DNA of 64,000 nt. Origin: Desulfobacterales bacterium. GTDB lineage: Bacteria > Desulfobacterota > Desulfobacteria > Desulfobacterales > JALSRD01. The DNA is taken from NCBI GenBank assembly GCA_026984935.1, contig JALSRD010000028.1, positions 7,097 through 71,096 of the forward strand. Direction: 5' to 3'. The notes beneath the pieces are model-generated. The model did not search any database and was not told where the DNA came from. It saw nothing but the letters and a program-made list of their open reading frames with translations. Made by a program: the position numbers and the translations under genes. Shown here piece after piece: positions 4,561 to 33,059 of the stretch (position 1 is the stretch's first letter; every line of letters begins with the position of its first letter).

Positions 4561-4606
4561 CTTCGAGTCCCCTCGTCACGCCGGCATCGCCGCCAACTCG
4601 GCCGTA

Positions 4607-5980: not shown

Positions 5981-6033
5981 AAACGCCTCCGCTTCGCTTT
6001 TGGTTGGAATCGGCTGCCGCCGGAAGAGGCGGA

Positions 6034-6588: not shown

Positions 6589-6778
6589 CGCAAAAGAAGC
6601 CCCCATGGGGTTTACCAAAACAGCCCGCAAGCACGTTTACGGCTTGAACCACAGGCTGTTTGTATGTTAAACAGTCAGGAAAATGGCGGCCGTCAGGCGG
6701 TGCAGCATGTTGCCAGTGGCGCACGGCATGCCGTCTGCCGGCCGTGTGGGATGTTACATTGAACATAAGGAAGGCTAA

Positions 6779-7615
6779 ATGTCAAAGGATAAAGCGGTCA
6801 GCGCCTTTATCAGGGATCACAAAACCCTGTTTATCGTCATCGGCGTGGTCATTTTTCTGATCGAGATCGAAATTTTCGCCGTGGCGGTCACCAAATCCGG
6901 TCGCAAGTCATGGCTGCAGGTGCGCAACGCCAAGGGCAACGTGATCTATGAAACCCCCGGCGAGCATCTGAGCCACTTCAACAAGTACTACTTCGAAAAA
7001 ACGTTCGGCCCCTTTGACCAGTACGACGTCAAGCTGGTTTCCAAGGTGACCCCCTTCCCTTTCCGTGCCTGGTTCACTGCCGCCGTCGGCATTCCGGTGG
7101 GCGCCGTTCTTCTGATCGCCTTTATTTTCCGGGCCACGGTCAGCCTGCTGCACGGCGACAGCCGCAGTGCCGGCGATATGCACATGCCGGACGACGGCCA
7201 CACCCGTTTTGAAAAGACCTTGGCGCGCATCGCGCGCTTCAACATCTTCACCATCGGGTTTCTGGTTTTCGCGGCCATCTTTCTCTACTGGGTGATCCCC
7301 AACGTGATTGCCTACGCAGGCAAAATCGGCATCGAAACCATCACGCGCTACAAGTGGATTTTCCTGTCGCTGGGGATTCTCTTTGTGGCCCTGGTGGTGT
7401 GGATCATCTACCTGCGTTACCTGCTGGCCAAAAAATCCATCGAAAGCCAGACCGAGATCAAAAAGTATCAGCTCCAGATAGAGGCCGGCACCGCCCCGGC
7501 CGCTCCCCTGCAGCTCGACTATGATGAAAGGCCGGAACCGGTGCGGCCGGCGGCTGCTGACCCGCACATAGACAGCGCACCGCCTGCGGCGCAACGCGAC
7601 GAACGGGCGGCCTGA
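6779..7615 (+). CDS. hypothetical membrane protein
   Basis: 278 aa with AAGGAAGG upstream of the ATG, several hydrophobic helices (LFIVIGVVIFLIEIEIFAVAV, FTIGFLVFAAIFLYWVI, IFLSLGILFVALVVWIIY) and a Pro/Ala-rich tail. Confidence 0.6.
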   Translation: MSKDKAVSAFIRDHKTLFIVIGVVIFLIEIEIFAVAVTKSGRKSWLQVRNAKGNVIYETPGEHLSHFNKYYFEKTFGPFDQYDVKLVSKVTPFPFRAWFTAAVGIPVGAVLLIAFIFRATVSLLHGDSRSAGDMHMPDDGHTRFEKTLARIARFNIFTIGFLVFAAIFLYWVIPNVIAYAGKIGIETITRYKWIFLSLGILFVALVVWIIYLRYLLAKKSIESQTEIKKYQLQIEAGTAPAAPLQLDYDERPEPVRPAAADPHIDSAPPAAQRDERAA

Positions 7616-7767
7616 CCTTCGCCGGCGCGCGAATCGTTTCTCTTTTACGAGCGCACGCTGATACCGGTCCCCATGCGATGCTGCGGCCTGGTGGCAGAAG
7701 CACCAAAGCCCGGTGCCCGGCAGCTGCAACCGAACCGGCGATTGCGCCTTTCCTCCACCCCCTTGCT

Positions 7768-8790
7768 TCAGGCCGCCGGGCTGTCCTTTTCCCGCAGCCA
7801 GGCTGCCAGGCGCTGCAGCCCCTCTTCTGTGGACACCCGCGGCACATAGCCCAGGTCGCGGCGCGCCGCGCTGATATCGAACCAGTGCGACGTCGCCAGT
7901 TCATGGGCCACGAAGCGCGTCATGGGCGGTTCGGCGGATAAATGCAGCGCCCGGTAGACCGCTTCCAGCAAAAACCCCAGCAGCCAGGCGCTGCGCGCGG
8001 ACATGCGGCGCCCGACGGGCGCCAATCCGGCAGCCGCCAGGATGCGGTTGATCATCTCCCAGAGGCGCACGGGCGCGCCCTGGCTGATAAAGTAGACCCG
8101 GCCGGAAACGGCGGGATCCGCGGCCAGCCGGTCCGCCGCCAGCACATGCGCGGCGGCGGCGTTTTCGATGTAGGTCGTATCCACGAGATTGCGGCCGTCA
8201 CCCACCTGCACCAGTCGCCGCGCGCGCGCAATGATGCGCGGCACCAGATGGTTGTCGCCCGGCCCCCATATCAGGTGGGGCCTTAAAACCGCGACCGCAA
8301 GTCCCCGTCCGGCGGCTGCAAACACTGCCCTTTCCGCCGCGATTTTGCTGGCCTGGTAGGCGGAAAGCCGGCGGCGGGCATACCCGATGGATTCGTCGGC
8401 GCCGCAGATATCCCGTCCGTCAAAAACCACGCTGGGCGAACTGGTGTACACCAGTTGCGCCACGCCGCTGCGGCGGCAGGCCGCCAGCACGTTGCGCGTG
8501 CCGTCCACATTGATCCGCCGGTAGTCTTCGGCATCGCCCCACACACCCGCTTTGGCGGCGGTGTGATAGACGACACCCACACCGCGAAACGCATTTTCCA
8601 GCGCCGGCAGGTCGCACACATCGGCGCTGATCTGGGCGACTCCCAGTTCGTCCAGGCCTGCATGCCGCCGGCGCGAAAGGCTGATGACGCGCCGGCCGCG
8701 CGCGACCAGCTGGGCAGCGATGGCACTGCCCAGAAAGCCCCCGCCGCCGGTGATCAGGGCAACAGGGCCGGCCGGCGCATTTTTTGGCAT
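7768..8790 (-). CDS. NAD-dependent epimerase/dehydratase, 3-beta-hydroxysteroid dehydrogenase-like family
   Basis: 340 aa with the Rossmann motif ITGGGGFLGSAI and the catalytic YxxxK motif (YQASK). Confidence 0.85.
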   Translation of the reverse strand: MPKNAPAGPVALITGGGGFLGSAIAAQLVARGRRVISLSRRRHAGLDELGVAQISADVCDLPALENAFRGVGVVYHTAAKAGVWGDAEDYRRINVDGTRNVLAACRRSGVAQLVYTSSPSVVFDGRDICGADESIGYARRRLSAYQASKIAAERAVFAAAGRGLAVAVLRPHLIWGPGDNHLVPRIIARARRLVQVGDGRNLVDTTYIENAAAAHVLAADRLAADPAVSGRVYFISQGAPVRLWEMINRILAAAGLAPVGRRMSARSAWLLGFLLEAVYRALHLSAEPPMTRFVAHELATSHWFDISAARRDLGYVPRVSTEEGLQRLAAWLREKDSPAA

Positions 8791-9009
8791 GGTTCACCTG
8801 TGATGATGCCGTAAAAAGTCCGGGCTTCCCGCTTCTGAGAAGCCTTTTGGAAAGCTGCGTTTAGCCAAATCCCGCCAACGTGTCGCTTTGCTCCCCGAAT
8901 AGCCCGGGATTTTCAATGCTTAAACCCCTGCACCGCGCTTTTTGCCGCAAAGGCTTGAAATCCGCCTGAAACCGATCCCTTTTGGTCGGGTTGGGGTTTT
9001 GGCTGCACC

Positions 9010-9759
9010 TCAGGAAGCTTCCGGAATCTCGCTTTTCTCGTCCAGGCCGCGGTGGATCTCGCCGGCCGCCGTGAGGAAGGCTTCCCGTGCACGGCGCGCA
9101 AACGGGTTGTAACGGTGCATGTCCTCGAAGAGCTGCCAGGTGTCGTGCTCTACGGTTTCCAGTGTGTACAGCAGCCGCTGGTAGCCCTCGGTGTCGATGG
9201 GCATGGGTGCCGCTCCGCAGCGTGAAAGGGAGCGTCCCAGAAAGTGCGTCAGGGCCAGGCTGAAGGCGATCTGGCGGTCGTGCTCCGCAGGGGAAGTCTC
9301 GATGACCGCCAGGCCCTTGGTGGCCAGGTAAACCTTGATGCGGTGGAAAAGACGCATGCCGATGCGCTGGGGGCAGACGACGATTTTCTTCCCGGCCAGC
9401 GAATCGGCGGCCGAATCCGGCCCGAACATGGGGTGGCTGGCCAGAATCGAAACCGATTCCGGCAAAAGGCGTGCCATGAGCCGGCTGGGATAGATCTTGA
9501 CCGAACAGACATCCATAACCAGCGCACGGGGGAGCAGGAGCGGGGCGATCTGCCCAAGCACCCGTTCCAGTGCGGAGATAGGCACCGCTGGAATCACGAT
9601 GCGCCGGCGGCAGACATCCGCCAGCGATTCGAACACAACGCCCGCCCGCTCCAGTTCGGCGGTCGGCGGACGGCGGCTGCAGACCCCCACCGCGAAATCA
9701 GCCGCCAGATAGCCGGCCATCAGCCGCCCGAAACGCCCCGCACCGATGATCCCGATCAT
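9010..9759 (-). CDS. tyrA: prephenate dehydrogenase
   Basis: 249 aa with [11 protein letters not shown] (Rossmann fold), DVCSVK and SHPMFGP motifs. It is the last gene of the aromatic operon and its start overlaps the aroC stop. Confidence 0.85.
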
Positions 9760-10841
9760 AAGATTTCCATCCGCTGCTGGCGCAGGGCCAGGTCGGCCAG
9801 CACCAGGGCGGCCATGCCCTCGACGATGGGAACCGCCCGCGGCACCACGCAGGGGTCGTGCCGGCCCTTGGCCTCCAGGGTCACCGGACGCCCGCTGAAA
9901 TCCACCGTCTGCTGGGGCCGGCCGATGGTGGCCGGCGGCTTGAAGGCCACCCGGAAAAAAACCGCCTCGCCGCTGGAGATGCCCCCCAGCACACCGCCGC
10001 TGCGGTTGGTGCGTGCTCCCAGACCCCGGGCCCGTTTTTCAAAGGTATCGTTGTGCTGCGAACCATACAGCCGCGTGCCGCCGAAGCCCGAGCCGATCTC
10101 GAACCCCTTGGTGGCCGGGATGGACAGCATGGCCTGGGCCATTTTGGCCTCCAGTTTGTCAAAGACGGGCTCCCCCCATCCGACCGGCACGTGCCGACAG
10201 ACGCAGCTTACCACTCCGCCCACCGAATCGCGGGCCTCGCGCACGGCGAGGATGGTCTCCATCATACGTGCACCGGCCGCGGGATCCGGGCAGCGCACCG
10301 CACTTTTATCCACCTCCCCGCGTGTCAGGCCGGCACGGTCGACATCGTCGGCATCGATTTCGCCCACTGCACTGACCCAGGCGACGATTTCCACGCCGTA
10401 GGCCTGTTGCAGAAACTTTTCGGCAATCGCCCCGGCCGCCACGCGCCCGATGGTCTCGCGGGCGCTGGAACGCCCGCCGCCGCTGGCGGCGCGCACCCCG
10501 TACTTCATCTGGTAGCTGTAGTCCGCGTGCGACGGCCGCGGGATCCGGCTCAGGTGTCCGTAGTCCCCCGGCCGCTGGTCGCGGTTGGCCACGTACAGGG
10601 CAATGGGGCTTCCCAGGGTGCGGCCGTTTTCAACGCCGGAAAGAATCACGACGCGGTCGGTTTCCCGGCGGTCGGTGGTCAGCCGGCTCTGCCCCGGCCG
10701 GCGCCGGTCGAGCTGCGGCTGGATGTCGTCCTCGGCCAGTTCCAGTCTGGCGGGACAGCCGTCCACCACGGCACCCACCGCGCGGCAGTGCGATTCACCA
10801 AAGGTGGTCACCCGAAACAACGTTCCGAAAGTACTGGACAT
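9756..10841 (-). CDS. aroC: chorismate synthase
   Basis: [30 protein letters not shown]... is a canonical AroC N-terminus. The start is placed at the ATG at 10839-10841 with AGGAG upstream; the track ORF extends to 10934. Confidence 0.95.
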
Positions 10842-10855
10842 CAGAGATGCTCCTG

Positions 10856-11401
10856 TCAGTTTCTGCCGAACTGCGCCAGACAGCCGGCCCTTGCCAGCTG
10901 CACGGTCACCGCCACACGCACCGCCTCGGCGCAAAGGTCGTCGGTGTGCACCCAGAGGTCGGCAGCCGCCCGGTAAAGCGGCCGGCGGGCCTCTAAGGTC
11001 CGGCGGATTTCCTGCAGGGCGTCTTTTCCGCCAAGCGCCGGACGCGACAGCGCGCTGGCGGCATCTTTGCGCATGCGCTTTTCAATGCTCGCCTCACCGG
11101 CGCGCAACCAGACGAGCACGCCGTTTTGTTTCATCCGCTGCACGTTGGCCGCATCGCAAGGCACCCCGCCGCCGGTGGCCACCACCTGGCGGCGGCGGGC
11201 GCACACCGCAGCCAGCACATGCCGCTCGGCCAAACGGAAGGCTTCCCAGCCGCGCCGCCGCACGACATCGGCGATACTTGCTCCCAGGTCCGCTGCAACC
11301 AGGGCATCGGTATCCACGAAAGGCCATCCGAGCGACTGCGCCAGGTGCCGGCCGACGGTGGTCTTGCCGCTGCAGCGGTATCCGATCAAAAAAACGTTCA
11401 C
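10856..11401 (-). CDS. aroK: shikimate kinase
   Basis: P-loop [11 protein letters not shown] followed by DTD. A GTG start at 11399-11401 overlaps the aroA stop as GTGA; the track ORF extends to 11458. Confidence 0.9.
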
Positions 11402-12660
11402 GGCCTGCACAATTCCGCGAGCACCTGCCAGAAGCCGGGAAAGGACTTGGCCACGCACGATTCGTTTTCAATCCCCACGCCGGGGACTTTCAGTCCGGCC
11501 AGCGCAAAGCTCATGGCGATGCGGTGGTCGTCATGGGGATCGATCGGCGCCCCGCGCGGGTTCCCGCCCCAGACGGTCAGCGTATCGGCATCGGCCTCGG
11601 CCCGGATGCCCAGGTTGCCGAGTCCGGCGACCACGGCCGCCAGGCGGTCGCTCTCCTTGCGCCGCAGGTGGGCCACGCTGCGCATGCAGGTGGTGCCGCG
11701 GGCAAAGGCCGCCGCCACGGCCAGGGTCGGCACCATGTCCGGCATGTCCGCCATGTCGACGTCCACCGCCCGCAACCGGCCGCCGGTCAGGCGCACGCCA
11801 TCGGCCTCTTCGGAGACGCTGCAGCCCATATCGGCCAGCACCCGCACCAGCCGGAAATCGCCCTGCAGGGTGTCAGCGCGGGTTCCGAGCACCTTGACCG
11901 ACCCGCCGGTGATGGCGGCCGCCGTCCAGAAGTAGCCGGCCTGGGAGCAGTCCGGTTCCACCGTGTAGCGCGCACAGCGGTAAAGCTTTCCGCCCGGTAC
12001 CTGGAAGTGGCGGTAGCCCTGGCGCTGCACATCAACACCGAAACGTGACATGACCTCCACCGTCAGATCGATGTAGGGCCGCGACACCGGCCCGCCGATT
12101 ACTTGGATATCCAGCCCCTTTGCGGTATAGGGCCCGATCAGCAGCAGTGCGGAGAGGAACTGGCTGCTGAGGCCGCAGTTAACCGTGACCGCTCCGCCGT
12201 CGATCGCCCCGCCGGTAACCCGCACCGGCGGACATCCGCCGGGACTCAGACAGCTGATCTGTACACCCAGGCGCCCCAGGGCATCGGTCAGATCCTGAAT
12301 GGGGCGCGCCTGCATGCGCGCGCTGCCGCTGAGCGTGTAGGTGCCGCTGCCTATCGCCGCCACGGCCGTCAGCAACCGCATGGAAGTCCCGGAGTTGTGC
12401 AGGTCGATATCTGCCGTAAACGGTTCCAGGCGCCCGGCGGTACCGGTGACCTCCACGGCATCTCCGCGGCCCGCAATCCCGGCGCCCAGTTTCTTCAGCG
12501 CCGCCAGCGTCAGCCCGGTGTCCTCGCTGCGCAGGGCATTTTCGATACGGCAGACACCGTCGGAAAGCGCCGCCGCAATCAGGGCGCGGTGGGTCAGGCT
12601 TTTGGACCCGGGTACGCAAACCGTTCCTTTCAGGTCCGTCTTGAGCGGCACACGCATCAT
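11398..12660 (-). CDS. aroA: 3-phosphoshikimate 1-carboxyvinyltransferase (EPSP synthase)
   Basis: 420 aa with the motifs VPGSKSLTHRAL, LHNSGTSMRLL and DHRIAMSF. Confidence 0.95.
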   Translation of the reverse strand: MMRVPLKTDLKGTVCVPGSKSLTHRALIAAALSDGVCRIENALRSEDTGLTLAALKKLGAGIAGRGDAVEVTGTAGRLEPFTADIDLHNSGTSMRLLTAVAAIGSGTYTLSGSARMQARPIQDLTDALGRLGVQISCLSPGGCPPVRVTGGAIDGGAVTVNCGLSSQFLSALLLIGPYTAKGLDIQVIGGPVSRPYIDLTVEVMSRFGVDVQRQGYRHFQVPGGKLYRCARYTVEPDCSQAGYFWTAAAITGGSVKVLGTRADTLQGDFRLVRVLADMGCSVSEEADGVRLTGGRLRAVDVDMADMPDMVPTLAVAAAFARGTTCMRSVAHLRRKESDRLAAVVAGLGNLGIRAEADADTLTVWGGNPRGAPIDPHDDHRIAMSFALAGLKVPGVGIENESCVAKSFPGFWQVLAELCRP

Positions 12661-22105: not shown

Positions 22106-22148
22106 AATCCGCAAAAGGTTTAAGCGCCGAACCATGCGAGGGATAGAC

Positions 22149-25100
22149 ATGCCTGATAAGATTCGCGCCCTCGGCATCTGCCTGGGGGCTTCCACCGTTT
22201 CCGTAGTCCAGGTCGAGGCACCGCGGCCGTCGGCTGCCTGCATGACCGACCTTGCCGAAACCATTAAAAGCGCGCGCATCCGCGCCCATCACCTGTATCC
22301 CCATGAAGGGGCGCCCCGGCAAACCCTGCTGGCGGCCCTCAAAGAAATCGACATCGGCCGCTTCGAGCGCATCGCCGTCACGGGCCGCACCTTCCGCCAC
22401 TTTGTCAACCTGAGCGCCATCCCGGAACCCGAAGCCGTGGAGTACGCCTATGGCTATGCCAGACCGGCAGGTGTTTCCTGCCCCGCCGTCGTCTCGGCCG
22501 GCGGCGAAACTTTCATGGTCTACACCCTGAATGCGGCCGGCGAGATTTCCAATGTCATCACCGGCAACAAGTGCGCTTCCGGAACCGGCGAATTTTTCCT
22601 GCAGCAACTGCGGCGCATGAACGTATCCCTGGAAGCGGCCGCCAAGTGGGCGGCCGCTGAAGAACCCTACCGCGTTTCCGGCCGCTGCAGCGTTTTCTGC
22701 AAGTCGGACTGCACGCACGCCACCAACAAGGGCGTCCCCAAAGCCAGGGTCACGGCGGGGCTCTGCCGCATGATGGCCAACAAGGTGCTGGAGCTGCTAA
22801 AAAAGGTTCCGCGCCGGCACATCATGCTGACCGGCGGTACGGCCCGCAACCACATGATGGTGGCCTACCTGCAAAAAGAGATCGAGGACCTGATCGTACC
22901 GCCCCAGGCCGCCTATTTCGAAGCCCTGGGAGCGGGCCTGTGGGCGCTTGCCCATGAAACAGACCCTTTCCCGGGTCGCGAAAACCTGTTTAAATCCGAC
23001 TTTTCTTCTTTTGCACGCCTGGCCGCACTGAAAAATTTCAGCGACCAGGTGGACTTTAAAACGGTCAAACGGGAAGAGATCCACATCGGCGACACCTGCC
23101 TGCTGGGGCTCGACGTGGGGTCGACCACCACCAAGGCCGTACTGCTGCGCAAATCGGACAACGCCATCCTGGCGTCGGTCTACCTGCGCACCAGCGGTGA
23201 CCCGGTGGGCGCATCCCGCCGCTGCTACCGCCAGATCCTCGAAGACATCCGACAGCATGTCAACCCCGCCGATATTCGCATCATCGGCCTGGGGGTCTGC
23301 GGCTCCGGCCGGCAGATCGCCGGCCTGCACGCCCTGACGGACGGCATCATCAACGAAATCATCGCCCACGCGGCGGCGGCCGTGTTTTTCGACGCCGGTG
23401 TGGACACCATCTTTGAGATCGGGGGCCAGGATGCCAAATACACGTACATCACCAATGGTGTCCCCTCCGACTATGCCATGAACGAAGCCTGCTCGGCGGG
23501 TACCGGGTCTTTTCTCGAAGAAGCGGCGCTGGAAACCCTGGGCGTCGCCATGGAAGCCATCGGCGACATCGCCATCCGCGGCACCCGCCCGCCCAACTTC
23601 AACGACCAGTGTGCGGCGTTCATCGCATCCGACATCAAGAACGCCATCCATGAAGGCGTGGCACACGAGGACATCGTGGCCGGGCTGGTGTATTCCATCT
23701 GCATGAATTACGCCAACCGCGTCAAGGGCAACCGCCCGGTGGGCGAGAAGGTCTTTATGCAGGGCGGCGTGTGCTACAACCGGGCCGTGCCGCTGGCCAT
23801 GGCGGCGCTGATCGGCAAGCCCATCGTCGTACCGCCCGAACCGGGCCTCATGGGGGCCTTCGGCGCGGCCTTGGAAGTCAAGAAGCGCATCGCCGACGGC
23901 CTGCTGGACGAGGACCGCTTCGACCTGCAGGCCCTGGCGCAGCGGGAAGTCAGATACGGCAAGTCTTTTACCTGCGGCGGCGGCAGGGGGAAATGCGACC
24001 GGCGCTGCCGGATCGCCACCATCGAGCTGGACGGGAAGAAATTCCCCTTTGGCGGGGCCTGCAACCGCTATTACAACCTGCGGCACAACCTCCGCTACGA
24101 CGTCCAGTCCCTGGATCAGGTGCGGCGGCGCCAGAAGCTGGTATTTGAAAAATACGCACCGCCGTCTGTCCGTACGGGCGTGCGCCGCGGCAGCGTGGGC
24201 ATCACACGCAGTTTTCTGGTCAACACCTATTATCCCTTTTACGCCACTTTTTTCAACGAACTGGGATTCGACCTGATCGTACCGGATGCGCCGTCTGCCG
24301 AGGGCATCGACCGCCGCGAAGCGGCCTTCTGCTATCCGGCAGAGCTGGCCCACGGCTTCTTTCACCGCCTGCTTACCAGCACGCCGGCGCCCGATTTTAT
24401 TTTTCTGCCGCACTTCAAGGCGGTCCCCACGACCAACGGCACGGCCAGTTCACAGGTCTGCCCCATCGTGCAGGGCGAAACCTACTTTCTGCAAACGACC
24501 TTTGCCCGGGAACTGGACGCGCTGCGGCACACCGGCACCCGCCTGCTGGCACCGCTGCTGGACCTGACGCACGGCCTGGAAACCGCCCGCCGGCCGATGA
24601 CCACCATGGCGATGCGCATGGGCGTCGGCCGCCGCAGTGCGCGGCAGGCTTTTGAGCGCGCCGTCGACCAGCAGCGCCGCTGCCGGGCGGAAATGAAGGC
24701 CATCGGCAGCGCCGCGCTGGCGGATCTCAGAAAACGCCCCGACGGCATCGGCGTGGTAATCTTCGCACGCCCCTACAACGGTTTTGCCCCGGAAGCGCAC
24801 ATGGGCATCCCGCACAAACTGGCCTCACGCGGCGTACTGGTGATCCCGCTCGACTTTCTGCCCATCGAAGGCGAAAAAGCCAAACGCCACATGTACTGGG
24901 GCATGGGGCAGCTGATCCTGCAGGCCGCCCGCCTGGTCAAAAGAGACCCCCAGCTGTTCGCCACCTACATTACCAATTTTTCATGCGGGCCGGATTCATT
25001 CCTGATCGGATATTTCCGCAGCATCATGGGCCGCAAGCCCTCACTGACCCTGGAACTGGACAGCCACACCGCCGATGCCGGACTGGAAACCCGCATCGAA

Positions 25101-26522
25101 GCCTTCCTGGACATCGTCACCGCCTACCGGCACCTGAATGCGGACCGGCCGCCGGCAACGCAATCCACGCACTACGTGCCGGCCAAAACACTTTTAACAG
25201 ACGGACAACTGCGGGTGCAGACATCCTCCGGCGCGGTGCTGCCCATGCACGATCCGCGGGTGACTTTCATCTTCCCCTCCATGGGCCGTTACTCTTCCGA
25301 GGCCATGTCGGCGGTTTTCAGGGGAGCCGGCTTCAATGCCGTGGCCCAGTCGCCGGCCGATGAAAACGTCCTGAAACTGGGCCGTGCCAACACCTCCTGC
25401 AAAGAATGCCTGCCACTGATCCTGACCACCGGCGCCCTGCTGAAATCGTCCCACGAGAAACGCGCGGATGAAATCCTGGTGTACTTCATGCCCACCGGCC
25501 TGGGGCCCTGCCGTTTCGGCCAGTACTATATCTTCATGGAAGACCTGATCAAACGGCTGCAAATACCCGACGTGGCGATATTTGCGCTGTCAGGGGAGGA
25601 TGCCTATGCCGGGCTGGACAGCGGCTTCAACCGCCGCGGCTGGTGGGCCATCCTGGTGTCCGATTTCATCGAGGACATCCGTTCCATGCTGCTGGCCAAT
25701 GCCCGTGACACGCGCTCCGCCCTGGAGGTTTTCGAAAAAGAATGGTCGGACATCCTGGCGGCCCTCGAACAGGGCACCTTCGCCGCCCTGAAAACGCAGC
25801 TCGCACGAAGCGCCGTCCGCCTGAAAAACATAGCGCTGCAAAAGGCGCCCGCAGAGGTGCCCACGGTCACGCTCACCGGGGAGATATTTGTGCGGCGGGA
25901 CGCGCTTTCACGCCAGCACCTGACGGAGCAGCTGGCGCGCAAGGGGTTCGCCGCGCTGTGCTCACCCATTGCCGAGTGGGTGCGCTACACCGATTACCTG
26001 GTGCTGAAGGACAAGGTGCCCGACCCTGTTTCCAAAAAGGAAAAATTCGGCCTGCTGGTGAAACAGCACTACATGTCGCGCGATGAGAGGGCAATCAAGA
26101 AAATTCTGGCGCAAAGCGGCCTGATCTCAGACGCCGTAACGCAACTCAAGTCGGTCATCAAGACCGCCAGCCCCTACATGTCAATGGACCTGTGCGGTGA
26201 AGCCGTCCTGACCATCGGCGCCTCTCTGGCCGAGGTCGCCGAGCATACCTGCGGGGTCATCGCCATCGGTCCTTTCGGCTGCATGCCCAATCGGTTGTCG
26301 GAGGCCATTCTCAGTGAAACCATGACGCGCCGTGCCAAACTGAACGCATCACCTGACAGCCAGGAGTTGAAAGCCGTGCTGGCCGACATCGAGGACCTGC
26401 CCTTTCTGGCCATTGAAAGCGATGGGTCTCCCTTTCCGCAGACCATCAATGCCAAGCTGGAGAGTTTCTGCCTGCGTGCCAGGCGGCTGCACGGCCGCAT
26501 GCGCGCCGCGCATGCAAAGTAG
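22149..26522 (+). CDS. acyl-CoA dehydratase activase-related giant protein (2x BcrA/BadF/HgdC ATPase + C-terminal DUF2229-like regions)
   Basis: There are two ASKHA ATPase units (LGICLGASTVSVV...NKCASGTGEFF and LGLDVGSTTTKAVLL...NEACSAGTGSFLEE...NDQCAAF). They are followed by ~850 aa resembling the uncharacterised CoA-enzyme-activase C-terminal domains. The start is placed at ATG 22149 (GAGGGA upstream). Confidence 0.85.
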   Translation: MPDKIRALGICLGASTVSVVQVEAPRPSAACMTDLAETIKSARIRAHHLYPHEGAPRQTLLAALKEIDIGRFERIAVTGRTFRHFVNLSAIPEPEAVEYAYGYARPAGVSCPAVVSAGGETFMVYTLNAAGEISNVITGNKCASGTGEFFLQQLRRMNVSLEAAAKWAAAEEPYRVSGRCSVFCKSDCTHATNKGVPKARVTAGLCRMMANKVLELLKKVPRRHIMLTGGTARNHMMVAYLQKEIEDLIVPPQAAYFEALGAGLWALAHETDPFPGRENLFKSDFSSFARLAALKNFSDQVDFKTVKREEIHIGDTCLLGLDVGSTTTKAVLLRKSDNAILASVYLRTSGDPVGASRRCYRQILEDIRQHVNPADIRIIGLGVCGSGRQIAGLHALTDGIINEIIAHAAAAVFFDAGVDTIFEIGGQDAKYTYITNGVPSDYAMNEACSAGTGSFLEEAALETLGVAMEAIGDIAIRGTRPPNFNDQCAAFIASDIKNAIHEGVAHEDIVAGLVYSICMNYANRVKGNRPVGEKVFMQGGVCYNRAVPLAMAALIGKPIVVPPEPGLMGAFGAALEVKKRIADGLLDEDRFDLQALAQREVRYGKSFTCGGGRGKCDRRCRIATIELDGKKFPFGGACNRYYNLRHNLRYDVQSLDQVRRRQKLVFEKYAPPSVRTGVRRGSVGITRSFLVNTYYPFYATFFNELGFDLIVPDAPSAEGIDRREAAFCYPAELAHGFFHRLLTSTPAPDFIFLPHFKAVPTTNGTASSQVCPIVQGETYFLQTTFARELDALRHTGTRLLAPLLDLTHGLETARRPMTTMAMRMGVGRRSARQAFERAVDQQRRCRAEMKAIGSAALADLRKRPDGIGVVIFARPYNGFAPEAHMGIPHKLASRGVLVIPLDFLPIEGEKAKRHMYWGMGQLILQAARLVKRDPQLFATYITNFSCGPDSFLIGYFRSIMGRKPSLTLELDSHTADAGLETRIEAFLDIVTAYRHLNADRPPATQSTHYVPAKTLLTDGQLRVQTSSGAVLPMHDPRVTFIFPSMGRYSSEAMSAVFRGAGFNAVAQSPADENVLKLGRANTSCKECLPLILTTGALLKSSHEKRADEILVYFMPTGLGPCRFGQYYIFMEDLIKRLQIPDVAIFALSGEDAYAGLDSGFNRRGWWAILVSDFIEDIRSMLLANARDTRSALEVFEKEWSDILAALEQGTFAALKTQLARSAVRLKNIALQKAPAEVPTVTLTGEIFVRRDALSRQHLTEQLARKGFAALCSPIAEWVRYTDYLVLKDKVPDPVSKKEKFGLLVKQHYMSRDERAIKKILAQSGLISDAVTQLKSVIKTASPYMSMDLCGEAVLTIGASLAEVAEHTCGVIAIGPFGCMPNRLSEAILSETMTRRAKLNASPDSQELKAVLADIEDLPFLAIESDGSPFPQTINAKLESFCLRARRLHGRMRAAHAK

Positions 26523-26640: not shown

Positions 26641-27066
26641 ATGAAAACTGACAGACGCGGTACCTGGACGGTTTTGGCGGTTGTGCTGCTCGGCGGCCTG
26701 CTGGTGAGCGGTCTGCTGGCTTTTTTCAGCGGCTGCGATATCGGCGGCTGCGACTGTGACAACGAAATCGACGACTTGCTGGCCAGCCAGGGCCAGCCGG
26801 ATACTTTCAACTTTCTGGACTCCACCGACGAGAGCATCTACACCTTTGTCTATATCGACAAGCTGAGCGATGCGGAAATTGCCAGCGGCGTTGAACCCAT
26901 GCAGACCGAGTACACCTTCCGCTGGGGGGACACCCTGACGGAGTGCTGCATCAAAAGCGTCAATCGGACGGCATTGGGCGGCAGCGGCACATCCACGGAC
27001 ACGGGCACCTCGACGGGCACGGACACTTCGACGGGCACGGACACATCCCCGGCCGGCGGCACTTAA
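26641..27066 (+). CDS. putative lipoprotein with Cys-rich N-terminus and Thr/Ser/Gly/Asp repeat tail
   Basis: AAGGAGGG SD. A signal peptide ends in FFSGC (lipobox-like). The mature N-terminus is CDIGGCDCDNE and the C-terminus is GTSTDTGTSTGTDTSTGTDTS. Confidence 0.6.
   Translation: MKTDRRGTWTVLAVVLLGGLLVSGLLAFFSGCDIGGCDCDNEIDDLLASQGQPDTFNFLDSTDESIYTFVYIDKLSDAEIASGVEPMQTEYTFRWGDTLTECCIKSVNRTALGGSGTSTDTGTSTGTDTSTGTDTSPAGGT
27011..27044 (+). repeat. 18-bp tandem coding repeat (cgacgggcacggacac + 2 nt, two copies)
   Basis: The direct repeat occurs at 27011-27026 and 27029-27044 and encodes the STGTDT units. Confidence 0.8.
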
Positions 27067-27127: not shown

Positions 27128-28102
27128 ATGACGTCTTCCGCTTATCAACTTTTCCGGGAGCTGATGCAAAAGGGCCGCTACGCCGAGGCCGTCAGCCTGG
27201 CCCAGGCCGAGCAGCAGGCGGCCGCCCCGGACGACGCCTTCTGGTTGACACGCCAGGCAGCCGCGCTGCTGCGCCTCCGCGATTACACCGGTGCCCTGGC
27301 GGCCAGCCGACAGGCATTGGCGCGTCAGCCGGCCAACCCATACGCCAGCCTGACAACCGCCCAGGCCCTGTACGGCCTGAAACGCACCGCCGAAGCACTG
27401 CTGCACTACGAGGCCGCGGCCACGGAAAAAAAACTCGCCGCAACCGCCTGTAAAGGCGCCCTGGCCTGCCTGGCGCAGGGTAAACAGTGGCGCCGGATAC
27501 TCGATCGTCTGGCACTGTGGAAGCTTCCCGAAACCCAAACCCTTTACTGGAAGGCCAAGGCGCTGCAAGGCCTGGGCCGCACACAGGAGGCCGCCGATGT
27601 CTGCCGCAAATGGCTGCAGATATCACCGGACGCCCCCCGGGCACTGTGGATGCTGACGGAGCTCGAGATCCGCATCGAAGGCCTCGAAGCGGTGCGCACG
27701 CGCATGGGGCGCCTGGCCCGCATTTCATCACGTCCGCCGATCTACAAGGAAATCTTCGCTTCGCTCAGCCGCCGGTCCGGCCGGATTGCGGAAGCCCTCG
27801 CCCAGTATGAAACACTTGCCGACAGTACGGCCGACCCCCGCCTGCTCCGGCAGCGCGCCTTTACGCTGGCCAAGTCCGGCCGCGAAACAGAGGCCCTGCC
27901 CCTGCTGGAAGAACTGCTGAAAATCGATCCGGCCGATTTTTACCTGCATGCATCCTATACCGGCGCCTGCCGACGTATCAAACAGCTTGACAGGGCCTTG
28001 AAATTTTACGAAGATCTGCTGGACATGCACCCCGCCCAGAAAGGCCTTTACACCCGTATGCGCAATATCCGAAAACTGCTGGACCCCGATGAAACCCTTT
28101 GA
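27128..28102 (+). CDS. TPR-repeat protein
   Basis: 324 aa that is helical throughout, with repeated A/L/Y-spaced 34-aa-like units (e.g. YAEAVSLAQAEQ, ALAASRQALARQPANPYA, EALPLLEELLKIDPADFY). Its stop overlaps the next start by 14 nt. Confidence 0.8.
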   Translation: MTSSAYQLFRELMQKGRYAEAVSLAQAEQQAAAPDDAFWLTRQAAALLRLRDYTGALAASRQALARQPANPYASLTTAQALYGLKRTAEALLHYEAAATEKKLAATACKGALACLAQGKQWRRILDRLALWKLPETQTLYWKAKALQGLGRTQEAADVCRKWLQISPDAPRALWMLTELEIRIEGLEAVRTRMGRLARISSRPPIYKEIFASLSRRSGRIAEALAQYETLADSTADPRLLRQRAFTLAKSGRETEALPLLEELLKIDPADFYLHASYTGACRRIKQLDRALKFYEDLLDMHPAQKGLYTRMRNIRKLLDPDETL

Positions 28103-31100
28103 CACCATCGGTGACCTGATCGACGTGCCACCCGTCCGCACCGTGGTGCAGCTCGAAGACGGCCGCCGGCGCACACGCGCCATCCTGCACAGCTTTGTTT
28201 TCACCGCTGAAACCGCCGCCCACCTGACGGTGCTCACCGACGCCCTGCAGAAGGAACACGGCCGCGGGTTCTTCCTGATGGGCGACTTCGGCGCGGGCAA
28301 ATCACATTTCCTGGCCTTCCTGAGCGCCTGGCTGTCCGATCCGCCGCCGGCCGATGTGCTGACCTCCCACCATGCCGGCCTGGCACAACTGCAGGCATCC
28401 GGCCGTCGTTTCCTGACCCTGCCGATCTCGCTGATCCGCTACCGCGCCGGCACGCCCCTGGAGCGTATCGTCATCGAAGGCCTGGAAAACGCGCTGGCAT
28501 CGGTCGGCACCCGCGTGCAGCTCAGTCCGATAAGGCGCTTCCTGAAAACTTTCAGGGCCCTTCTGAAGGACGGGGCAGCCGCTGACAACTACGCCCGGCA
28601 ACTGGCCGTCACGACAGCCGACATCGACACCTATATCGATGCGCATCCGCGCCAGGCCTACGTCCAGGCACTGCGTTTTTTAAAGTCTTCCGGTATGCAG
28701 ACGCCGGAATCCCTGCTGGAGGAACGTCATGAGACCTTTGCACGGGCGCTGACCGCCGTGGCCGCGGCCGGCTTCGATGGAACCTTGCTGCTCATCGACG
28801 AGCTGTCCGAGTTTTTCCGCGCCAAGGCGGACGCCCGCTCCCTGAACGAAGACGCGCGCACGCTGCAGTTTCTCGGTGAGCTCTGCGAAAGCCACCCCCT
28901 GTGGATCATCGCCGCCGTCCAGGAGAGCATCGAACGTACCGGCGACATCGCCCAGGTCACCTTCAAGAAGATCAAGGACCGCTTTCCGCTGAAAATGGTT
29001 CTGTCCACGCTGCACATCAAGTCCCTCATCGCCGAGCGTCTGGTGCGGCCCAAACCGGGAAGCGCGTCCCGGATACGGGAGGTGTTTGACTACCTGAAGC
29101 AGCAGTTTCCGGAGATGCACTGGAATTTCGAGGATTTCCGGCACACCTATCCGGTGCACCCGCTGACCATCGACCTGCTTGACGGCCTGGGCGACCTTTT
29201 TTCGGAACACCGCGGCATTGTTGATTTCGTGCACTGCCAACTGGCCGGCGACCATAACCGCAATATCGCGGGCATTCTCGACCGCCCGGCTTACGAACTG
29301 CTGGCGCCGGACAGCATCTACACGCATTTTTGCGACCGCATGGCCGAATTTTCGGCTTTCAACGTCTATCCGCGCCACATTGTACCGCACCTGGACACGG
29401 TTATTGCACAGGCTTTCGACAGCCCGTCGGACCGCCGCCTGGCGCGGCGCATCGTGCGCATGCTGGTTTTGTACGCCATTCATCCCACGGCCGACCCGCC
29501 TCCGGTCAAAGTGCTCGCCGGCCTGTGTACGGCTGCGATCTCGGACACCGACCCGGCGTTGAACGTCGAATTCGTGGCTGAGGCCATTCTCGACCCCCTG
29601 GTCACGGCCAGCAAGTTCCTGGTCAGGGCATCCCCGCCGGCAACCGACGCCATGGATGCCGTCTACCGCGTCACCACAAAAGAAGACCCTGCCAAGCGGC
29701 TGGGGCAACGCATCGCGCAGCGGGCTGCGGAAATTCCGCCCGAAGACCGCCGCCTTTTGTTGGCACCGCTGGCGCTGCTGGAGGAATCGCCGTCCTGGCC
29801 GGGACCCGAACTGCTCGCCGAGGGGCTGTACCGCCCGGTTCGCTGGCGCCAGAGCATCCGCCGCGCGTGGGCCTGTTTCAGCACGGCCCGTGACCCCGAA
29901 ACCCTGCGCCGCGACATTGTCCGCCGCCTGGACAGCGGCGAAGCCGACTTTGCCGTGGTTTTTGCCTTTGCAGAAACCGCCCCCGATCTGCAACACACCG
30001 CCGCCTGGCAGTTTCCGGTGCCGCCGCAACCCGGCCAGCTGGATGCACTGCGCGAGTATGCTGCGGCCGTCCAGGTGGCGGCCGAACTGCGCCCCGGCAA
30101 CCCGGCCGACGCGGCCCTGATCGAGCCGGCGGAACACGCCCTGGCACAACTGGCCCCGGCTGCCTGCCATACCGCGCTGGAAGTCTTCTATGCCGGCAGG
30201 TTCAGCGATACCGGCATGCCGGTGGAAAACGTGATCCGGCAGCTGAAGCGCTTCGACCGCCTGCTGGAGATTGCCGGGCAGTACCTGCTTGAAAAACGCT
30301 ATCCCGCCTTCCGGCAGGTCGCGCCGCGCCGTGTCGTACCGTCGGCTGCACTCTACCAGCGCCTGATCGATGCCTTCGTGGCCCCGGGCAGAATCAGCCT
30401 GCAACAGGCCCACCGGCAGAAACTTGCCGACGCCATCGACGGCCTGGCCCGCCCGTTGGGACTGGTCGAGCTCAAATCCGGGGCCTACGTGCTCTCACCG
30501 GACCCGGAAAACCACGCCCTGATTTCAGAGGTCTTCTCCCGCATCCGGGCGTCCGGCCAGACCGATCTCAAAACGCTCATGCAGCAGCTTCGCACGGGCG
30601 CCTTCGGTCTGCCGGCCGACACCGCCGCCTTTTTCATCAGCGCCCTGGCATACGGCGGCCTGATTACGCTGCTCAAGGGCGGACGCACCTTCCCGGTGGA
30701 GATGCTGGGAATGCTCTCTGTGGAGAAACTGGATGCCGTCGCACCCGGCGAGCTGATCAGCCGCAGTGACCGCAGCACGCTGACAGCCGAATGCCCCTTT
30801 CTGGCACCGCCGGACGGCTGGGGCGCCTTCGGGCTGAAACAGCAGCGCACAGCCTGGCAGATGCTGACAAGATTCCGCGAGCGCGCACGCCGGATTGTGG
30901 AAGACATCCGAACCCACATGGACTCCATGTCGGATTTCTCATCATTCCAGCATTTTGATATGCAGGAACTCAATCGGCGCCTGAATGCGCTGGACCAGGT
31001 GGCCAGCGAAATCAAGGTCTCTTACCACGCCCGCGAAGGCCTGGAACGCTTTCTGAGTGCCTGGCGCGGCGCGCAGCTCACCGCTGCACACCTTCAATGG

Positions 31101-33059
31101 CTGCAGAACCTGCGCCGCTTTCTGGCCACAGACGCCCAGAATTTCGTATTCATCTGCCATTACCTGCGCCATCAGGCAGTGGAACAGGCGAGCGCTGCCG
31201 ATCCGGCCCTGGCGGCACGCAGGTCCGCGGTGCAGGAACTGGTCGACCAGCCGGAGTCCCTGCTCACCGCAGACGGTCCCGCCCGCCTGAAGACGGCCTT
31301 TGAAGACTTCCGCAAAAACTACCTGGCCGCATACCAGCGGCAGCACCACGACTATTACCGCCGTTTTGCCCAAAAACCCCTTTCACGTTTCGCAAAACGC
31401 GCCTTGGCGCTGCTCAAGCGCCTGAGCGCCATCGAAACTCTGGACCGGCCGCCGGGAACCCGGCAGCTGATCCACACCCTCGAGCACCCGCGGGTAACCC
31501 CCTGCCGGCGACAAGTCGCCGAAGAGCTGCTGCGCTACCCGGTGTGCGGCTGCGGCTTTTTGCCCGGTGGCTCTGCGCCGCCCAACGGCATCGGGAATAC
31601 CGCCGCAGCGCTGGAAAAAACGTTGGCCGCCTACGTTGAGATTCTGAGGCAGCCGCGCATCCGCGAGGCCATCGCCGCCCGGCTGTTCGCACTTTCCGAA
31701 GCCCTCCCCGAAGCCGCCGCACGGCTGCGACGCTTGGCCGGCGTGCTGGAGACCCAGGCCCGGTCCACGGCAGCGCTGCTGGAAGTTTTGGACACTGAAA
31801 CGCTGAATCAGCTGGCCCGTTCGCTGGCCGGCCAGGTGCGCATCGCGCATCGCGACATTTCCGCCCTCACCGCCGGCCTGGAGGGCCGGCGCCTGACTCC
31901 CGATCAGATCATGCAAGCCTTTAAAGCATGGCTGGCCGAAGCCGAAGCCGACTGCATACTGGCCATTGAGGATTCCGGCCGCCGTCCGGATACAAACGGG
32001 CCTTCCGGTTGCAGCTGGTGGCCGGCGCTGCACCCCGCGCTCTTTCCCGCCACCGGTCTCTCAAAACCACCCATAGACGCGCTGCAGCATACTTTGGAAA
32101 AGGCCTACCCGTCTCCGGAACTGCGGCACAGGTTGTCCCGCCTGGACGAAAAACAGCTTGCCGATTTCATCTGCAACGAACCGCTGCACACCGGCGCCAT
32201 CTGTCAGGCCTGGCGCCTGCTGGCCGAGAGACAGCTGGAGCAGTCTCCCGAACCGCTTGCAGGGGCACACAAGAGCCGGCATGCCGACCGCCGGGTGGCA
32301 CAGCAGATCGAGAAACGCCTGGCCGTGTTGGGCAGCGTCGTGCGTTTCGGGCGCGCCTCCCTGCCCCGGGCCCTGCGCGGCCGCATCGCGCTGTCGGAAA
32401 TGCTGAGCGACCCCTGGGCCACCAGCGAGCTGCGCCGGCTGATCCGCGAAAGAATCGAAAGCCTGTCCGCCAGGGCCAACGAATGGGTCGCCACCCTGCC
32501 GCCCACGGAACCGATCCCGCTGCAGGGTGCGCCCCTGGTGTTGATCATCGATGGCGTATCACCGGATGTCTGGCTGGAAGTCCATGACAACCTGCCGCCG
32601 GATATCCGCACGCCGGCCTTCAGCTGGCAGCGCCTGACCGCCGTGCCGTTCACGGCACCGGCGGTTTCAGCCATGTTCGGTTTTGACGAAGACGCCGTGG
32701 ATGAACTGGCCGCCCGCGGTGTTCCCTATCACCGTCTCAGGGGTGACGAAGCGGCGGATTTCGATGCCCTCCTGCCGGCCTTTCCCGCCGACACCGCCAT
32801 TGTTATTCACGTCTCGCTGCTGGATGCCGGCGCCCACGGGGCCTACCTCCAGCTGCACGACATGCCGGCGGTGCTGTTGAACTTTCTGCGGCACAAAATG
32901 CCCTTTTTGCTGGAAAGCGCCGGCGCCCGGCAACAGGGCCTGATCGTCACCACGGATCACGGCCTGTCGCTCACGGCCAGGGGGCTGGCGCACGGACGCG
33001 GCGGCCCATTTGAATGCGCCATATTTCGCTGGCACGTTCCGCCGGTGTCCCAAATTTAA
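28089..33059 (+). CDS. BrxC/PglY-like P-loop ATPase fused to a C-terminal PglZ-like (alkaline-phosphatase superfamily) domain
   Basis: 1,656 aa. Walker A is GDFGAGKSHFLAFL (nt ~28281-28322) and Walker B-like is LLLIDELSEFF. The C-terminal 175 aa (nt 32532-33056) read LVLIIDGVSPDVW...TAVPFTAPAVSAMFG...LIVTTDHGLS...AHGRGGPFECAIF. The CDS call is firm; the domain calls rest on motifs only. Confidence 0.7.
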   Translation: MKPFDTIGDLIDVPPVRTVVQLEDGRRRTRAILHSFVFTAETAAHLTVLTDALQKEHGRGFFLMGDFGAGKSHFLAFLSAWLSDPPPADVLTSHHAGLAQLQASGRRFLTLPISLIRYRAGTPLERIVIEGLENALASVGTRVQLSPIRRFLKTFRALLKDGAAADNYARQLAVTTADIDTYIDAHPRQAYVQALRFLKSSGMQTPESLLEERHETFARALTAVAAAGFDGTLLLIDELSEFFRAKADARSLNEDARTLQFLGELCESHPLWIIAAVQESIERTGDIAQVTFKKIKDRFPLKMVLSTLHIKSLIAERLVRPKPGSASRIREVFDYLKQQFPEMHWNFEDFRHTYPVHPLTIDLLDGLGDLFSEHRGIVDFVHCQLAGDHNRNIAGILDRPAYELLAPDSIYTHFCDRMAEFSAFNVYPRHIVPHLDTVIAQAFDSPSDRRLARRIVRMLVLYAIHPTADPPPVKVLAGLCTAAISDTDPALNVEFVAEAILDPLVTASKFLVRASPPATDAMDAVYRVTTKEDPAKRLGQRIAQRAAEIPPEDRRLLLAPLALLEESPSWPGPELLAEGLYRPVRWRQSIRRAWACFSTARDPETLRRDIVRRLDSGEADFAVVFAFAETAPDLQHTAAWQFPVPPQPGQLDALREYAAAVQVAAELRPGNPADAALIEPAEHALAQLAPAACHTALEVFYAGRFSDTGMPVENVIRQLKRFDRLLEIAGQYLLEKRYPAFRQVAPRRVVPSAALYQRLIDAFVAPGRISLQQAHRQKLADAIDGLARPLGLVELKSGAYVLSPDPENHALISEVFSRIRASGQTDLKTLMQQLRTGAFGLPADTAAFFISALAYGGLITLLKGGRTFPVEMLGMLSVEKLDAVAPGELISRSDRSTLTAECPFLAPPDGWGAFGLKQQRTAWQMLTRFRERARRIVEDIRTHMDSMSDFSSFQHFDMQELNRRLNALDQVASEIKVSYHAREGLERFLSAWRGAQLTAAHLQWLQNLRRFLATDAQNFVFICHYLRHQAVEQASAADPALAARRSAVQELVDQPESLLTADGPARLKTAFEDFRKNYLAAYQRQHHDYYRRFAQKPLSRFAKRALALLKRLSAIETLDRPPGTRQLIHTLEHPRVTPCRRQVAEELLRYPVCGCGFLPGGSAPPNGIGNTAAALEKTLAAYVEILRQPRIREAIAARLFALSEALPEAAARLRRLAGVLETQARSTAALLEVLDTETLNQLARSLAGQVRIAHRDISALTAGLEGRRLTPDQIMQAFKAWLAEAEADCILAIEDSGRRPDTNGPSGCSWWPALHPALFPATGLSKPPIDALQHTLEKAYPSPELRHRLSRLDEKQLADFICNEPLHTGAICQAWRLLAERQLEQSPEPLAGAHKSRHADRRVAQQIEKRLAVLGSVVRFGRASLPRALRGRIALSEMLSDPWATSELRRLIRERIESLSARANEWVATLPPTEPIPLQGAPLVLIIDGVSPDVWLEVHDNLPPDIRTPAFSWQRLTAVPFTAPAVSAMFGFDEDAVDELAARGVPYHRLRGDEAADFDALLPAFPADTAIVIHVSLLDAGAHGAYLQLHDMPAVLLNFLRHKMPFLLESAGARQQGLIVTTDHGLSLTARGLAHGRGGPFECAIFRWHVPPVSQI

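Follow-up and report, generated by a model that had tools for sequence, protein, structure and literature searches.

A BrxC/PglY-type ATPase and a PglZ-like phosphoesterase domain in one polypeptide, with a tetratricopeptide repeat partner, in Desulfobacterales and other bacteria

A 64,000 nt stretch of a Desulfobacterales genome (assembly GCA_026984935.1, contig JALSRD010000028.1, positions 7,097 to 71,096; the whole stretch is called the window here) carries an open reading frame (ORF) of 1,656 amino acids (aa) that raises a question about bacteriophage exclusion (BREX) systems. Does a single chain join a BrxC/PglY-type ATPase to a PglZ-type phosphatase domain, and if so, what might such a chain do? 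An initial annotation, drawn from sequence motifs, had proposed the fusion. The locus is shown here to be a conserved two-gene operon, in which a gene for a tetratricopeptide repeat (TPR) protein is followed by the BrxC::PglZ-like fusion gene. The parts of the fusion are known; what is new is their conserved, minimal arrangement and the partner gene, and a modification module is lacking.

The reading frame and its BrxC/PglY-type ATPase

The fusion ORF (28089..33059, plus strand) is a single unbroken frame of 1,656 codons followed by a stop codon, so that the one-polypeptide claim of the initial annotation holds. The motifs quoted there are each found at the residues given: GDFGAGKSHFLAFL at aa 65–78 in the Walker A region, LLLIDELSEFF at aa 233–243, RYPVCGCGF at aa 1149–1157, LVLIIDGVSPDVW at aa 1483–1495, TAVPFTAPAVSAMFG at aa 1517–1531, LIVTTDHGLS at aa 1618–1627 and AHGRGGPFECAIF at aa 1634–1646. 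The GC content of the gene (0.62–0.65) shows no difference from that of its flanks. More than 100 relatives of 1,590–1,700 aa share 40–52% identity with the fusion protein across 99% of its length. A sequencing-error frameshift that makes two genes look like one, a case raised at the outset, is excluded because the single-chain architecture is kept in these full-length relatives and in 80 genomic loci; a frameshift or an assembly artefact as the source of the ORF is thus ruled out by conservation of the full-length frame.

Residues 1 to approximately 1295 are a complete BrxC/PglY-type AAA+ ATPase, as had been proposed for the N-terminus, and profile search, PDB sequence profile and predicted fold agree on this. 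Pfam PF19557 (DUF6079, now BrxC-PglY_N) matches with a score of 136 bits (cut-off 23; E = 1.3e-39) in three stretches, with profile positions 171–397 and 778–1126 of 1238 represented. The PADLOC BrxC-PglY model PDLC02482 gives E = 8e-35, and SspC matches are weaker. Scores against the NCBIfam models NF033441 (BrxC, 66.9 bits against 400) and NF047891 (PglY, 26.5 bits against 1700) are far under the equivalog cut-offs, thus the protein belongs to the BrxC/PglY family without being orthologous to its characterised members. A family profile run against the PDB finds the BrxC chains 9zn5_A, 9zll_A and 9zdx_C (E about 1e-11), and hhalign to the BrxC of E. fergusonii pEFER gives a probability of 97% (E = 3e-11) across the ATPase. 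An AlphaFold2 model of aa 1–1200 has a mean predicted local distance difference test (pLDDT) score of 85.8, and its top Foldseek matches are the Acinetobacter BrxC structures 9zdx and 9zll (E = 2e-10, template-modelling score 0.60–0.63 by target), with ORC/Cdc6 proteins next.

The ORC/Cdc6-type AAA+ core occupies aa 1–340 (28089..29108), as seen from invariant residues, hhalign, the PDB profile and Foldseek. The Walker A sequence GDFGAGKS occupies aa 65–72 (28281–28304) and the Walker B sequence LLLIDE aa 233–238 (28785–28802). G65, D66, F67, G68, G70, K71, H73, D237 and E238 are invariant across the family. The segment aa 341–910 (29109..30818), recognised from the model and the DUF6079 profile, contains a BrxC-like lid, a winged helix-turn-helix (wHTH), an alpha+beta domain and two further wHTH-like modules, with a mean pairwise identity of 42–60%. 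A long helical, coiled-coil region follows at aa 911–1250 (30819..31838), which is seen in the models and is covered by DUF6079 profile positions 778–1126. The order of elements in the model, i.e. AAA+ core, lid, wHTH, alpha+beta domain with two long helices, two wHTH-like units and a helical stretch, agrees with the module order of BrxC (PMC12839542). The initial annotation had left about 900 aa between the two enzymatic parts unassigned, however these residues are largely BrxC's own body of wHTH, alpha+beta and coiled-coil modules.

Two small features of this body are highly conserved. The cysteines C1139, C1153 and C1155 (...TPCRRQVAEELLRYPVCGCGF..., 31503–31553) are invariant in the family alignment, and the C-x13-C-x-C pattern is also present in a distant subfamily (locus L089) that is 24% identical. 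By analogy with the intermolecular zinc site of the Rad50 hook, the triad may bind zinc or may form a dimer hook. The segment aa 1251–1296 (31839..31976) is a small beta-alpha-alpha-beta subdomain with an invariant G1266-R-R-L1269 sequence; in the model it displays two strands (model residues 53–57 and 91–95) with two helices between. In position and predicted structure it matches, by analogy, the apex or hinge subdomain that ends BrxC (PMC12839542, PMC13326643).

The junction, the helical linker and the C-terminal core

The segment added to the BrxC body starts only at about aa 1297. Positions 1297–1330 (31977..32078) show the lowest conservation of the protein, with a mean pairwise identity of 26% as against 35–60% elsewhere; they form the sole gap-rich segment (gap fraction 0.085), and pLDDT falls below 50 at model residues 99–106. 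Weak conservation combined with low model confidence is as expected for a fusion junction. A helical linker bundle at aa 1331–1470 (32079..32498) is modelled with high confidence (model helices 130–269, pLDDT > 90). Foldseek alignments to PorX and to the PglZ chain 9zn5_B span approximately 400–560 columns and thus include this bundle, which resembles the linker preceding the PglZ core in PorX and BREX PglZ (PMC12839542). The remainder, aa 1471–1656 (32499..33056), is a minimal PglZ-like core of the alkaline-phosphatase superfamily, delimited by conservation, the AlphaFold2 model and Foldseek. The model of aa 1200–1656 has a pLDDT of 89.4, and the core itself 93–98.

Predicted metal ligands of the core are D1488, D1579, H1583, D1623, H1624 and H1635, and the predicted nucleophile is T1522; all are invariant or at least 90% conserved. 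D1493, W1495, T1621, G1625, G1636, G1639 and E1642 are near-invariant as well. The residues follow the order first-strand Asp, Thr past a Pro-containing loop, D-x3-H, D-H-G and a late His. Such order and spacing are those of the two-metal site and nucleophile of NPP-type enzymes of the alkaline-phosphatase superfamily. The DHG strand and the HG motif are separated by no more than a short hairpin (model residues 428–435), and there is no cap insert. A Foldseek search of the PDB with the C-terminal model gives PorX 8tfm_A as the top match (E = 1.2e-7, probability 1.00) together with a dozen other PorX chains, then BREX PglZ 9zn5_B (E = 9e-6), followed by MCR-1, EptC, NPP and alkaline phosphatases. 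A C-terminal fold outside this superfamily, a case that would have spoken against the proposed domain, is not seen, the top matches being PglZ domains. Conserved residues and predicted fold leave no doubt that the C-terminal domain is a phosphoesterase of the alkaline-phosphatase superfamily whose predicted site is intact. Conservation across the family shows both predicted active sites, that of the ATPase and that of the phosphoesterase, to be intact and under purifying selection.

How firmly may the core be called PglZ? Relaxed hhalign alignment to BREX-1 PglZ pairs IIDG with IISDA, VPFT with PSYT, LLDAGAH with IDAIGD and TTDHG with TADHG; the pairs are colinear and statistically weak. A second alignment places HGRGGPFE on HGGAMLQE of BREX-1 PglZ. 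The most distant fusion members, P0201 and P0212, match PF08665 with 27.1 and 28.6 bits, respectively, against a gathering score of 25. In four other members (P0206, P0213, P0215 and P0217) PglZ is the only C-terminal Pfam signal, and P0217 (locus L086) and P0213 (locus L089) represent divergent versions of the TPR and fusion module.

Several search results count against the PglZ name. The last 206 and 256 aa yield no PglZ match in Pfam or PADLOC even at E ≤ 10. A profile of the core run against 1.84 billion representative proteins yields 103 matches, nearly all of them the same family or its fragments, and no canonical PglZ is among them. Against a 74-sequence BREX-1 PglZ profile hhalign gives a probability of 51% (E = 1.5e-4), with the DHG motif alone confidently aligned. 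When 43 family cores are scanned singly, weak matches to PF01676 ('Metalloenzyme') appear in 19 of them (best E = 8e-4), and weak matches to PF08665 appear in eight (best E = 0.005). The hhalign comparison with one PglZ sequence has a probability of 23%, and the sequence-profile search of the PDB matched BrxC alone and no PglZ. As there is no direct profile match and the weak hits are split, the term PglZ-type rests mainly on structure, motifs and context. The initial assignment is supported with a caveat: fold, Thr and bimetal motifs, colinearity and the PF08665 hits of distant members agree with it, and a direct Pfam or PADLOC match is missing. A divergent PglZ-like domain of minimal size, approximately 175 aa, is the most apt description. 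Short proteins consisting of the domain only were considered as a split form and rejected; the example inspected, P0139, comes from a contig of only 927 bp and is likely to be fragmentary.

The TPR partner, hosts and neighbouring genes

The partner gene (27128..28102, plus strand) codes for a 324 aa protein that consists entirely of tetratricopeptide repeats (Pfam TPR_2, TPR_14, TPR_16 and TPR_19, E = 1e-14 to 1e-16), and no signal peptide is seen in the partner of the window. The end of the gene, with its stop codon, overlaps the ATG of the fusion ORF by 14 nt, which is typical of translational coupling. Of the genome-scan loci, 76 include sequence upstream of the fusion gene, and in 73 of these the immediately preceding gene, in the same orientation, is a TPR homologue (40–52% identity); the TPR neighbour, whose conservation the initial annotation had left to be checked, is thus conserved. 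Of the three other loci, L044 has the homologue downstream of the fusion gene. The other two, L018 (Desulfobacteraceae S24.Bin080) and L028 (Spirochaetales Zod_Metabat.749), show none within 6 kb upstream, where an alpha/beta hydrolase and a family-4 glycosidase gene are found instead; the TPR gene may be located elsewhere in those genomes. It is also adjacent and upstream in the distant subfamilies L086 and L089. The median pairwise identity is 44.5% for the TPR protein and the enzyme alike, and their divergences correlate with r = 0.94 over 1,225 pairs.

Run with the full-length alignment on one genome per GTDB species (185,579 genomes), the genome scan confirmed 89 stretches; 80 loci were retained, and every one of these comes from a metagenome-assembled genome (MAG). 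The hosts belong to Desulfobacterota, Spirochaetota, Fibrobacterota and Planctomycetota, and to Verrucomicrobiota, Kiritimatiellota and Lentisphaerota. About 100 representatives of the fusion family are present among the 1.84 billion proteins, and the family is rare and patchy inside each phylum. Two observations concern individual loci. In L089 (positions 4498–12510), the distant subfamily with 24–31% identity, the fusion is split into ORFs 5572–7947 and 7944–10967; it is unclear whether this split within the BrxC part is real or a frameshift. Two contigs of Spirochaetales MAG CSMAG_1186 (L059 and L064) each carry the module with coverages of 44x and 225x, so that either this genome holds the module twice or the bin is contaminated.

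No further BREX gene is detected beside the module. Neither the 64-kb window nor any of 85 related loci gives a tblastn match to pEFER BrxA, BrxB, PglX, PglZ or BrxL, in agreement with the initial annotation, which saw no partner genes nearby. A methyltransferase is not among the 25 commonest Pfam families of the 109 nearest neighbours, and no partner of this kind is found in the annotations and Pfam scans of neighbouring genes. Divergent BrxA- or BrxB-like folds below sequence detection may be present near the fusion gene. Of the BREX hallmarks, BrxC and a PglZ-like domain are thus present at the locus in one chain, and neither BrxA/BrxB-like parts nor a modification module, for which a PglX/BrxX methyltransferase or, in type 4, a PAPS reductase would count, are detected.

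Helicase genes recur next to the module in other genomes. RecD2/YrrC is directly downstream of the fusion gene in 19 spirochaete loci. A SWIM-SNF2 helicase gene (~900 aa) immediately precedes the TPR gene, in the same orientation, in nine loci, i.e. the Spirochaetota loci L045, L047, L058, L060, L062, L081 and L083, together with L014 (Desulfobacteraceae) and L022 (Verrucomicrobiia), and lies on the opposite strand in two more. L045, L047, L058, L062 and L083 display a tight four-gene row, SNF2-TPR-BrxC::PglZ-RecD2, which may be an extended form of the system. An RNase D-like exonuclease gene is found upstream in ten Desulfatibia-like loci; L089 has a RecQ helicase gene upstream of the TPR gene and an SprT-like gene downstream. 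In the window itself the module has no RecD2, SNF2, RecQ or RNase D-like neighbour. The neighbouring helicases match the PADLOC models DpdE, ZorD, DrmD and RecD-like.

Other genes of the window appear to be separate from the module. A 141 aa ORF (26641–27066, plus strand) between the activase and TPR genes has a hydrophobic N-terminal segment and a Thr/Gly/Ser-rich tail; it shows no Pfam match and no counterpart adjoins the module in other genomes. This ORF and DUF4468 were rejected as module members, having no conserved counterpart elsewhere. Besides the fusion gene only two very large ORFs are found in the window. One (22134–26522, plus strand) encodes 1,462 aa with two BcrAD_BadFG-type activase modules and DUF2229, is dehydratase-activator-like and is unrelated to the fusion protein. 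The other (54465–60602, minus strand) encodes 2,044 aa with a Zeta-toxin kinase domain at aa 606–753 and a RadC-like JAB domain at aa 947–1057, lies within a region of strongly negative AT skew at 56–62 kb and looks like a mobile-element 'polyvalent' protein. Nearby ORFs of 404 aa and 453 aa have no Pfam match or a beta-helix match only.

Possible roles and comparison with known systems

By analogy with BREX, the fusion and TPR proteins most likely constitute an ATP-gated, DNA-directed phosphodiesterase module derived from BREX. BrxC dimerises via its C-terminal hinge, ATP regulates its N-terminal association and DNA binding, and BrxB bridges BrxC to PglZ in a B:C:Z core complex (PMC13326643). 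BREX PglZ is a metal-dependent DNA-nicking nuclease that also cleaves cyclic and linear oligonucleotides (PMC12205998). The fusion protein would likewise dimerise at the hinge, and since the PglZ-like module is attached right after the hinge, a dimer would hold two catalytic cores there. Binding and hydrolysis of ATP would govern DNA binding or oligomerisation; engagement of DNA by the AAA+ and wHTH part, dependent on ATP, would in this way allow the attached phosphoesterase to cleave DNA, or phosphoesters linked to it. The covalent link would substitute for bridging by BrxB. The TPR protein would act as a regulator, adaptor or sensor, in the place held by BrxB and BrxA in BREX, and the adjacent helicase (RecD2, SWIM-SNF2 or RecQ) would cooperate in many lineages.

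Without a methyltransferase, targets would not be distinguishable by BREX-type methylation. The most likely role, and the least certain part of this reading, is that the module surveys or restricts foreign or aberrant DNA without recourse to methylation; this appears evenly poised between right and wrong. That DNA would be the substrate is an extension from BREX PglZ, and PorX, the closest fold, acts on oligonucleotides. On the side of a defence or accessory role, the closest DUF6079 relatives with annotation belong to BREX type 3 loci. A number of observations pull the other way. A tblastn search of 72,556 plasmids finds distant BREX-3 DUF6079 N-termini only and no fusion copies, and a scan of viral contigs finds no relatives of the fusion. 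In a neighbour-joining tree (no bootstrap values) the sequences group by phylum, and Desulfobacterota, Spirochaetota and Fibrobacterota form one clade each. Compared within the same genomes, the fusion protein evolves at a rate inside the span set by flanking housekeeping genes: RNase D and SNF2 diverge faster, ThrRS and RecD2 somewhat slower. Modules that are fast-evolving in BREX BrxC (PMC12839542) are well conserved in the fusion family. Among the 109 nearest neighbours, PADLOC gives generic helicase and exonuclease matches only, with no defence-island context, and a defence-island setting was rejected for this reason; the flanks of the fusion loci are ordinary metabolic genes. The family is chromosomal and mostly inherited vertically within four phylum-level groups.

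The same observations suit a housekeeping co-option, in which the module would be a chromosomal machine for DNA maintenance, passed on stably, that acts with RecD2, SNF2 or RecQ helicases in repair, at replication forks or in chromosome processing, and not against phage. The phylum-wise clades, the rate of evolution near that of ThrRS and RecD2, the metabolic flanks and the absence from plasmids and viral contigs all fit, as does local synteny: the module keeps its place near thrS-rnd in the Desulfatibia-like genomes and near recD2 throughout the spirochaete clade. All domains and the TPR partner are 35–60% conserved with hardly any length variation. However the rarity of the family, with 89 stretches in 185,579 species genomes and only MAGs among the 80 loci, is unlike that of a core function. 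Moreover, the characterised relatives of both halves are all in defence (BREX, Pgl, Ssp/Dnd) or in PorX signalling, and helicase neighbours are equally typical of defence systems. Such a co-option is somewhat unlikely, if still a serious contender. That the TPR and BrxC::PglZ pair is a vertically inherited DNA-maintenance machine, and hence either the cellular ancestor that supplied the BREX core or a domesticated BREX core, appears rather unlikely. A housekeeping role, if true, would change the view of BREX origin, and a DNA-maintenance role, if true, would be the first non-defence function for the BrxC and PglZ pair.

PorX is a type IX secretion response regulator that hydrolyses pGpG and cyclic or linear oligonucleotides. 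An improbable alternative is that the C-terminal domain is a PorX-like nucleotide or phosphoprotein phosphoesterase and not a DNA nuclease, in which case the whole protein would be a sensor driven by ATP whose output is signalling or the degradation of nucleotides. PorX chains rank above BREX PglZ in the structural search (E = 1e-7), although the gap in Foldseek E-value between the two is small. The minimal core of ~175 aa, without the cap insert and flanking domains of BREX PglZ, and the weak matches to PF01676, a family of the phosphomutase type, also favour this alternative, as does the fact that BREX PglZ too cleaves oligonucleotides. However the domain is fused to several wHTH DNA-binding modules whose homologue binds DNA, and the neighbours are DNA helicases and exonucleases, with no cyclases or signalling genes among them. 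The proposition that the ORF is an assembly or sequencing artefact merging two genes, or that the C-terminal motif pattern is a chance resemblance, is already refuted by the conservation data: one distant relative (L089) does have its frame split into two overlapping ORFs and the C-terminus lacks a direct Pfam match, but more than 100 independent full-length relatives, drawn from various samples and phyla, have a single frame of ~1,650 aa, the L089 split lies at about aa 730 in the middle of the BrxC part and away from the junction, 13 columns are invariant in the C-terminal domain, and its model (pLDDT 93–98) has a Foldseek probability of 1.00 for alkaline-phosphatase-superfamily folds.

The initial annotation had named no described system with this architecture, and full-text searches of the searchable literature likewise give no account of a BrxC-PglZ fusion or of the TPR partner. 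The most comprehensive BREX survey (PMC12839542) contains separate-gene combinations only, of the type-3 BR and HerA/FtsK-centred kinds. In public annotation the relatives are termed 'DUF6079 family protein' or hypothetical. Pfam, PADLOC and NCBIfam all fail to recognise the C-terminal domain, so that the family escapes pipelines that look for defence systems. Current work on the BREX mechanism points towards a BrxB:BrxC:PglZ core in which the ATP state of BrxC controls the PglZ nuclease (PMC13326643, PMC12205998). A fusion without BrxB, BrxA, BrxL or a methyltransferase thus provides independent evolutionary evidence that BrxC and PglZ are one functional unit. If the module is an ATP-gated phosphodiesterase derived from BREX, it offers a natural two-gene system for direct study of ATP-gated PglZ activity. 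It would also suggest that the BrxC and PglZ pair is able to operate without epigenetic self-marking, which raises the question of target recognition and of the TPR protein as a sensor.

Among known systems, the closest relatives in the annotated plasmid collection are the BrxC proteins of BREX type 3 (e.g. Roseomonas mucosa NZ_CP025192), which show 21–23% identity over the N-terminal 480 aa. These are found in full loci with BrxF, a methyltransferase and a helicase, and have neither a PglZ fusion nor a TPR gene. The type-3 BR and HerA/FtsK-centred systems (PMC12839542) are also non-canonical combinations of a BrxC-family ATPase with PglZ; in type-3 BR, PglZ is a minimal domain that stands alone, and the BR systems also comprise a Swi2/Snf2 helicase. 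In contrast to the fusion, their ATPase and PglZ are in separate genes, an iSTAND/BrxB homologue is present and no TPR partner is described, the text of the survey making no mention of TPR. BR includes a methyltransferase and the HerA system has five further components. In addition, the BR ATPase is DUF499, whereas the fusion is DUF6079.

PorX (PDB 7pv7, 8tfm and 8p6f) is the best structural match to the linker and core, with an identity of just 11–12%. It differs in its receiver domain and signalling role, and has no AAA+ ATPase or DNA-binding modules. The N-terminal part of the fusion shares with BrxC/PglY (PF19557; 9zdx, 9zll and 9zn5) the ORC/Cdc6-type AAA+ core with Walker A and B, and, in equal order, the wHTH, alpha+beta domain, wHTHs, long coiled coil and terminal hinge subdomain. 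Unlike BrxC, the fusion carries approximately 360 further C-terminal residues with the phosphoesterase and is found outside a BREX gene context, and its DNA-binding modules are conserved where those of BREX BrxC evolve fast.

BREX PglZ/BrxZ (PF08665) and the C-terminal part of the fusion share the alkaline-phosphatase-superfamily fold, the Thr nucleophile and bimetal ligands, a helical linker before the core and a functional partnership with BrxC. The motifs I-I-D, P-x-T, D-x3-H/D, T-(T/A)-D-H-G and H-G-(x)-G-G-x-x-E appear in the same order. The fusion core is smaller, ~175 aa as against ~290 aa. It does not have the three-stranded cap-like beta insert that is a synapomorphy of PglZ (PMC12839542), and the N-terminal inactive Swi2/Snf2 domain, the helix-turn-helix units and the C-terminal beta-sandwich of BREX PglZ are likewise absent. 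Whereas BREX PglZ is bridged to BrxC by BrxB, the core of the fusion protein is covalently attached to its ATPase.

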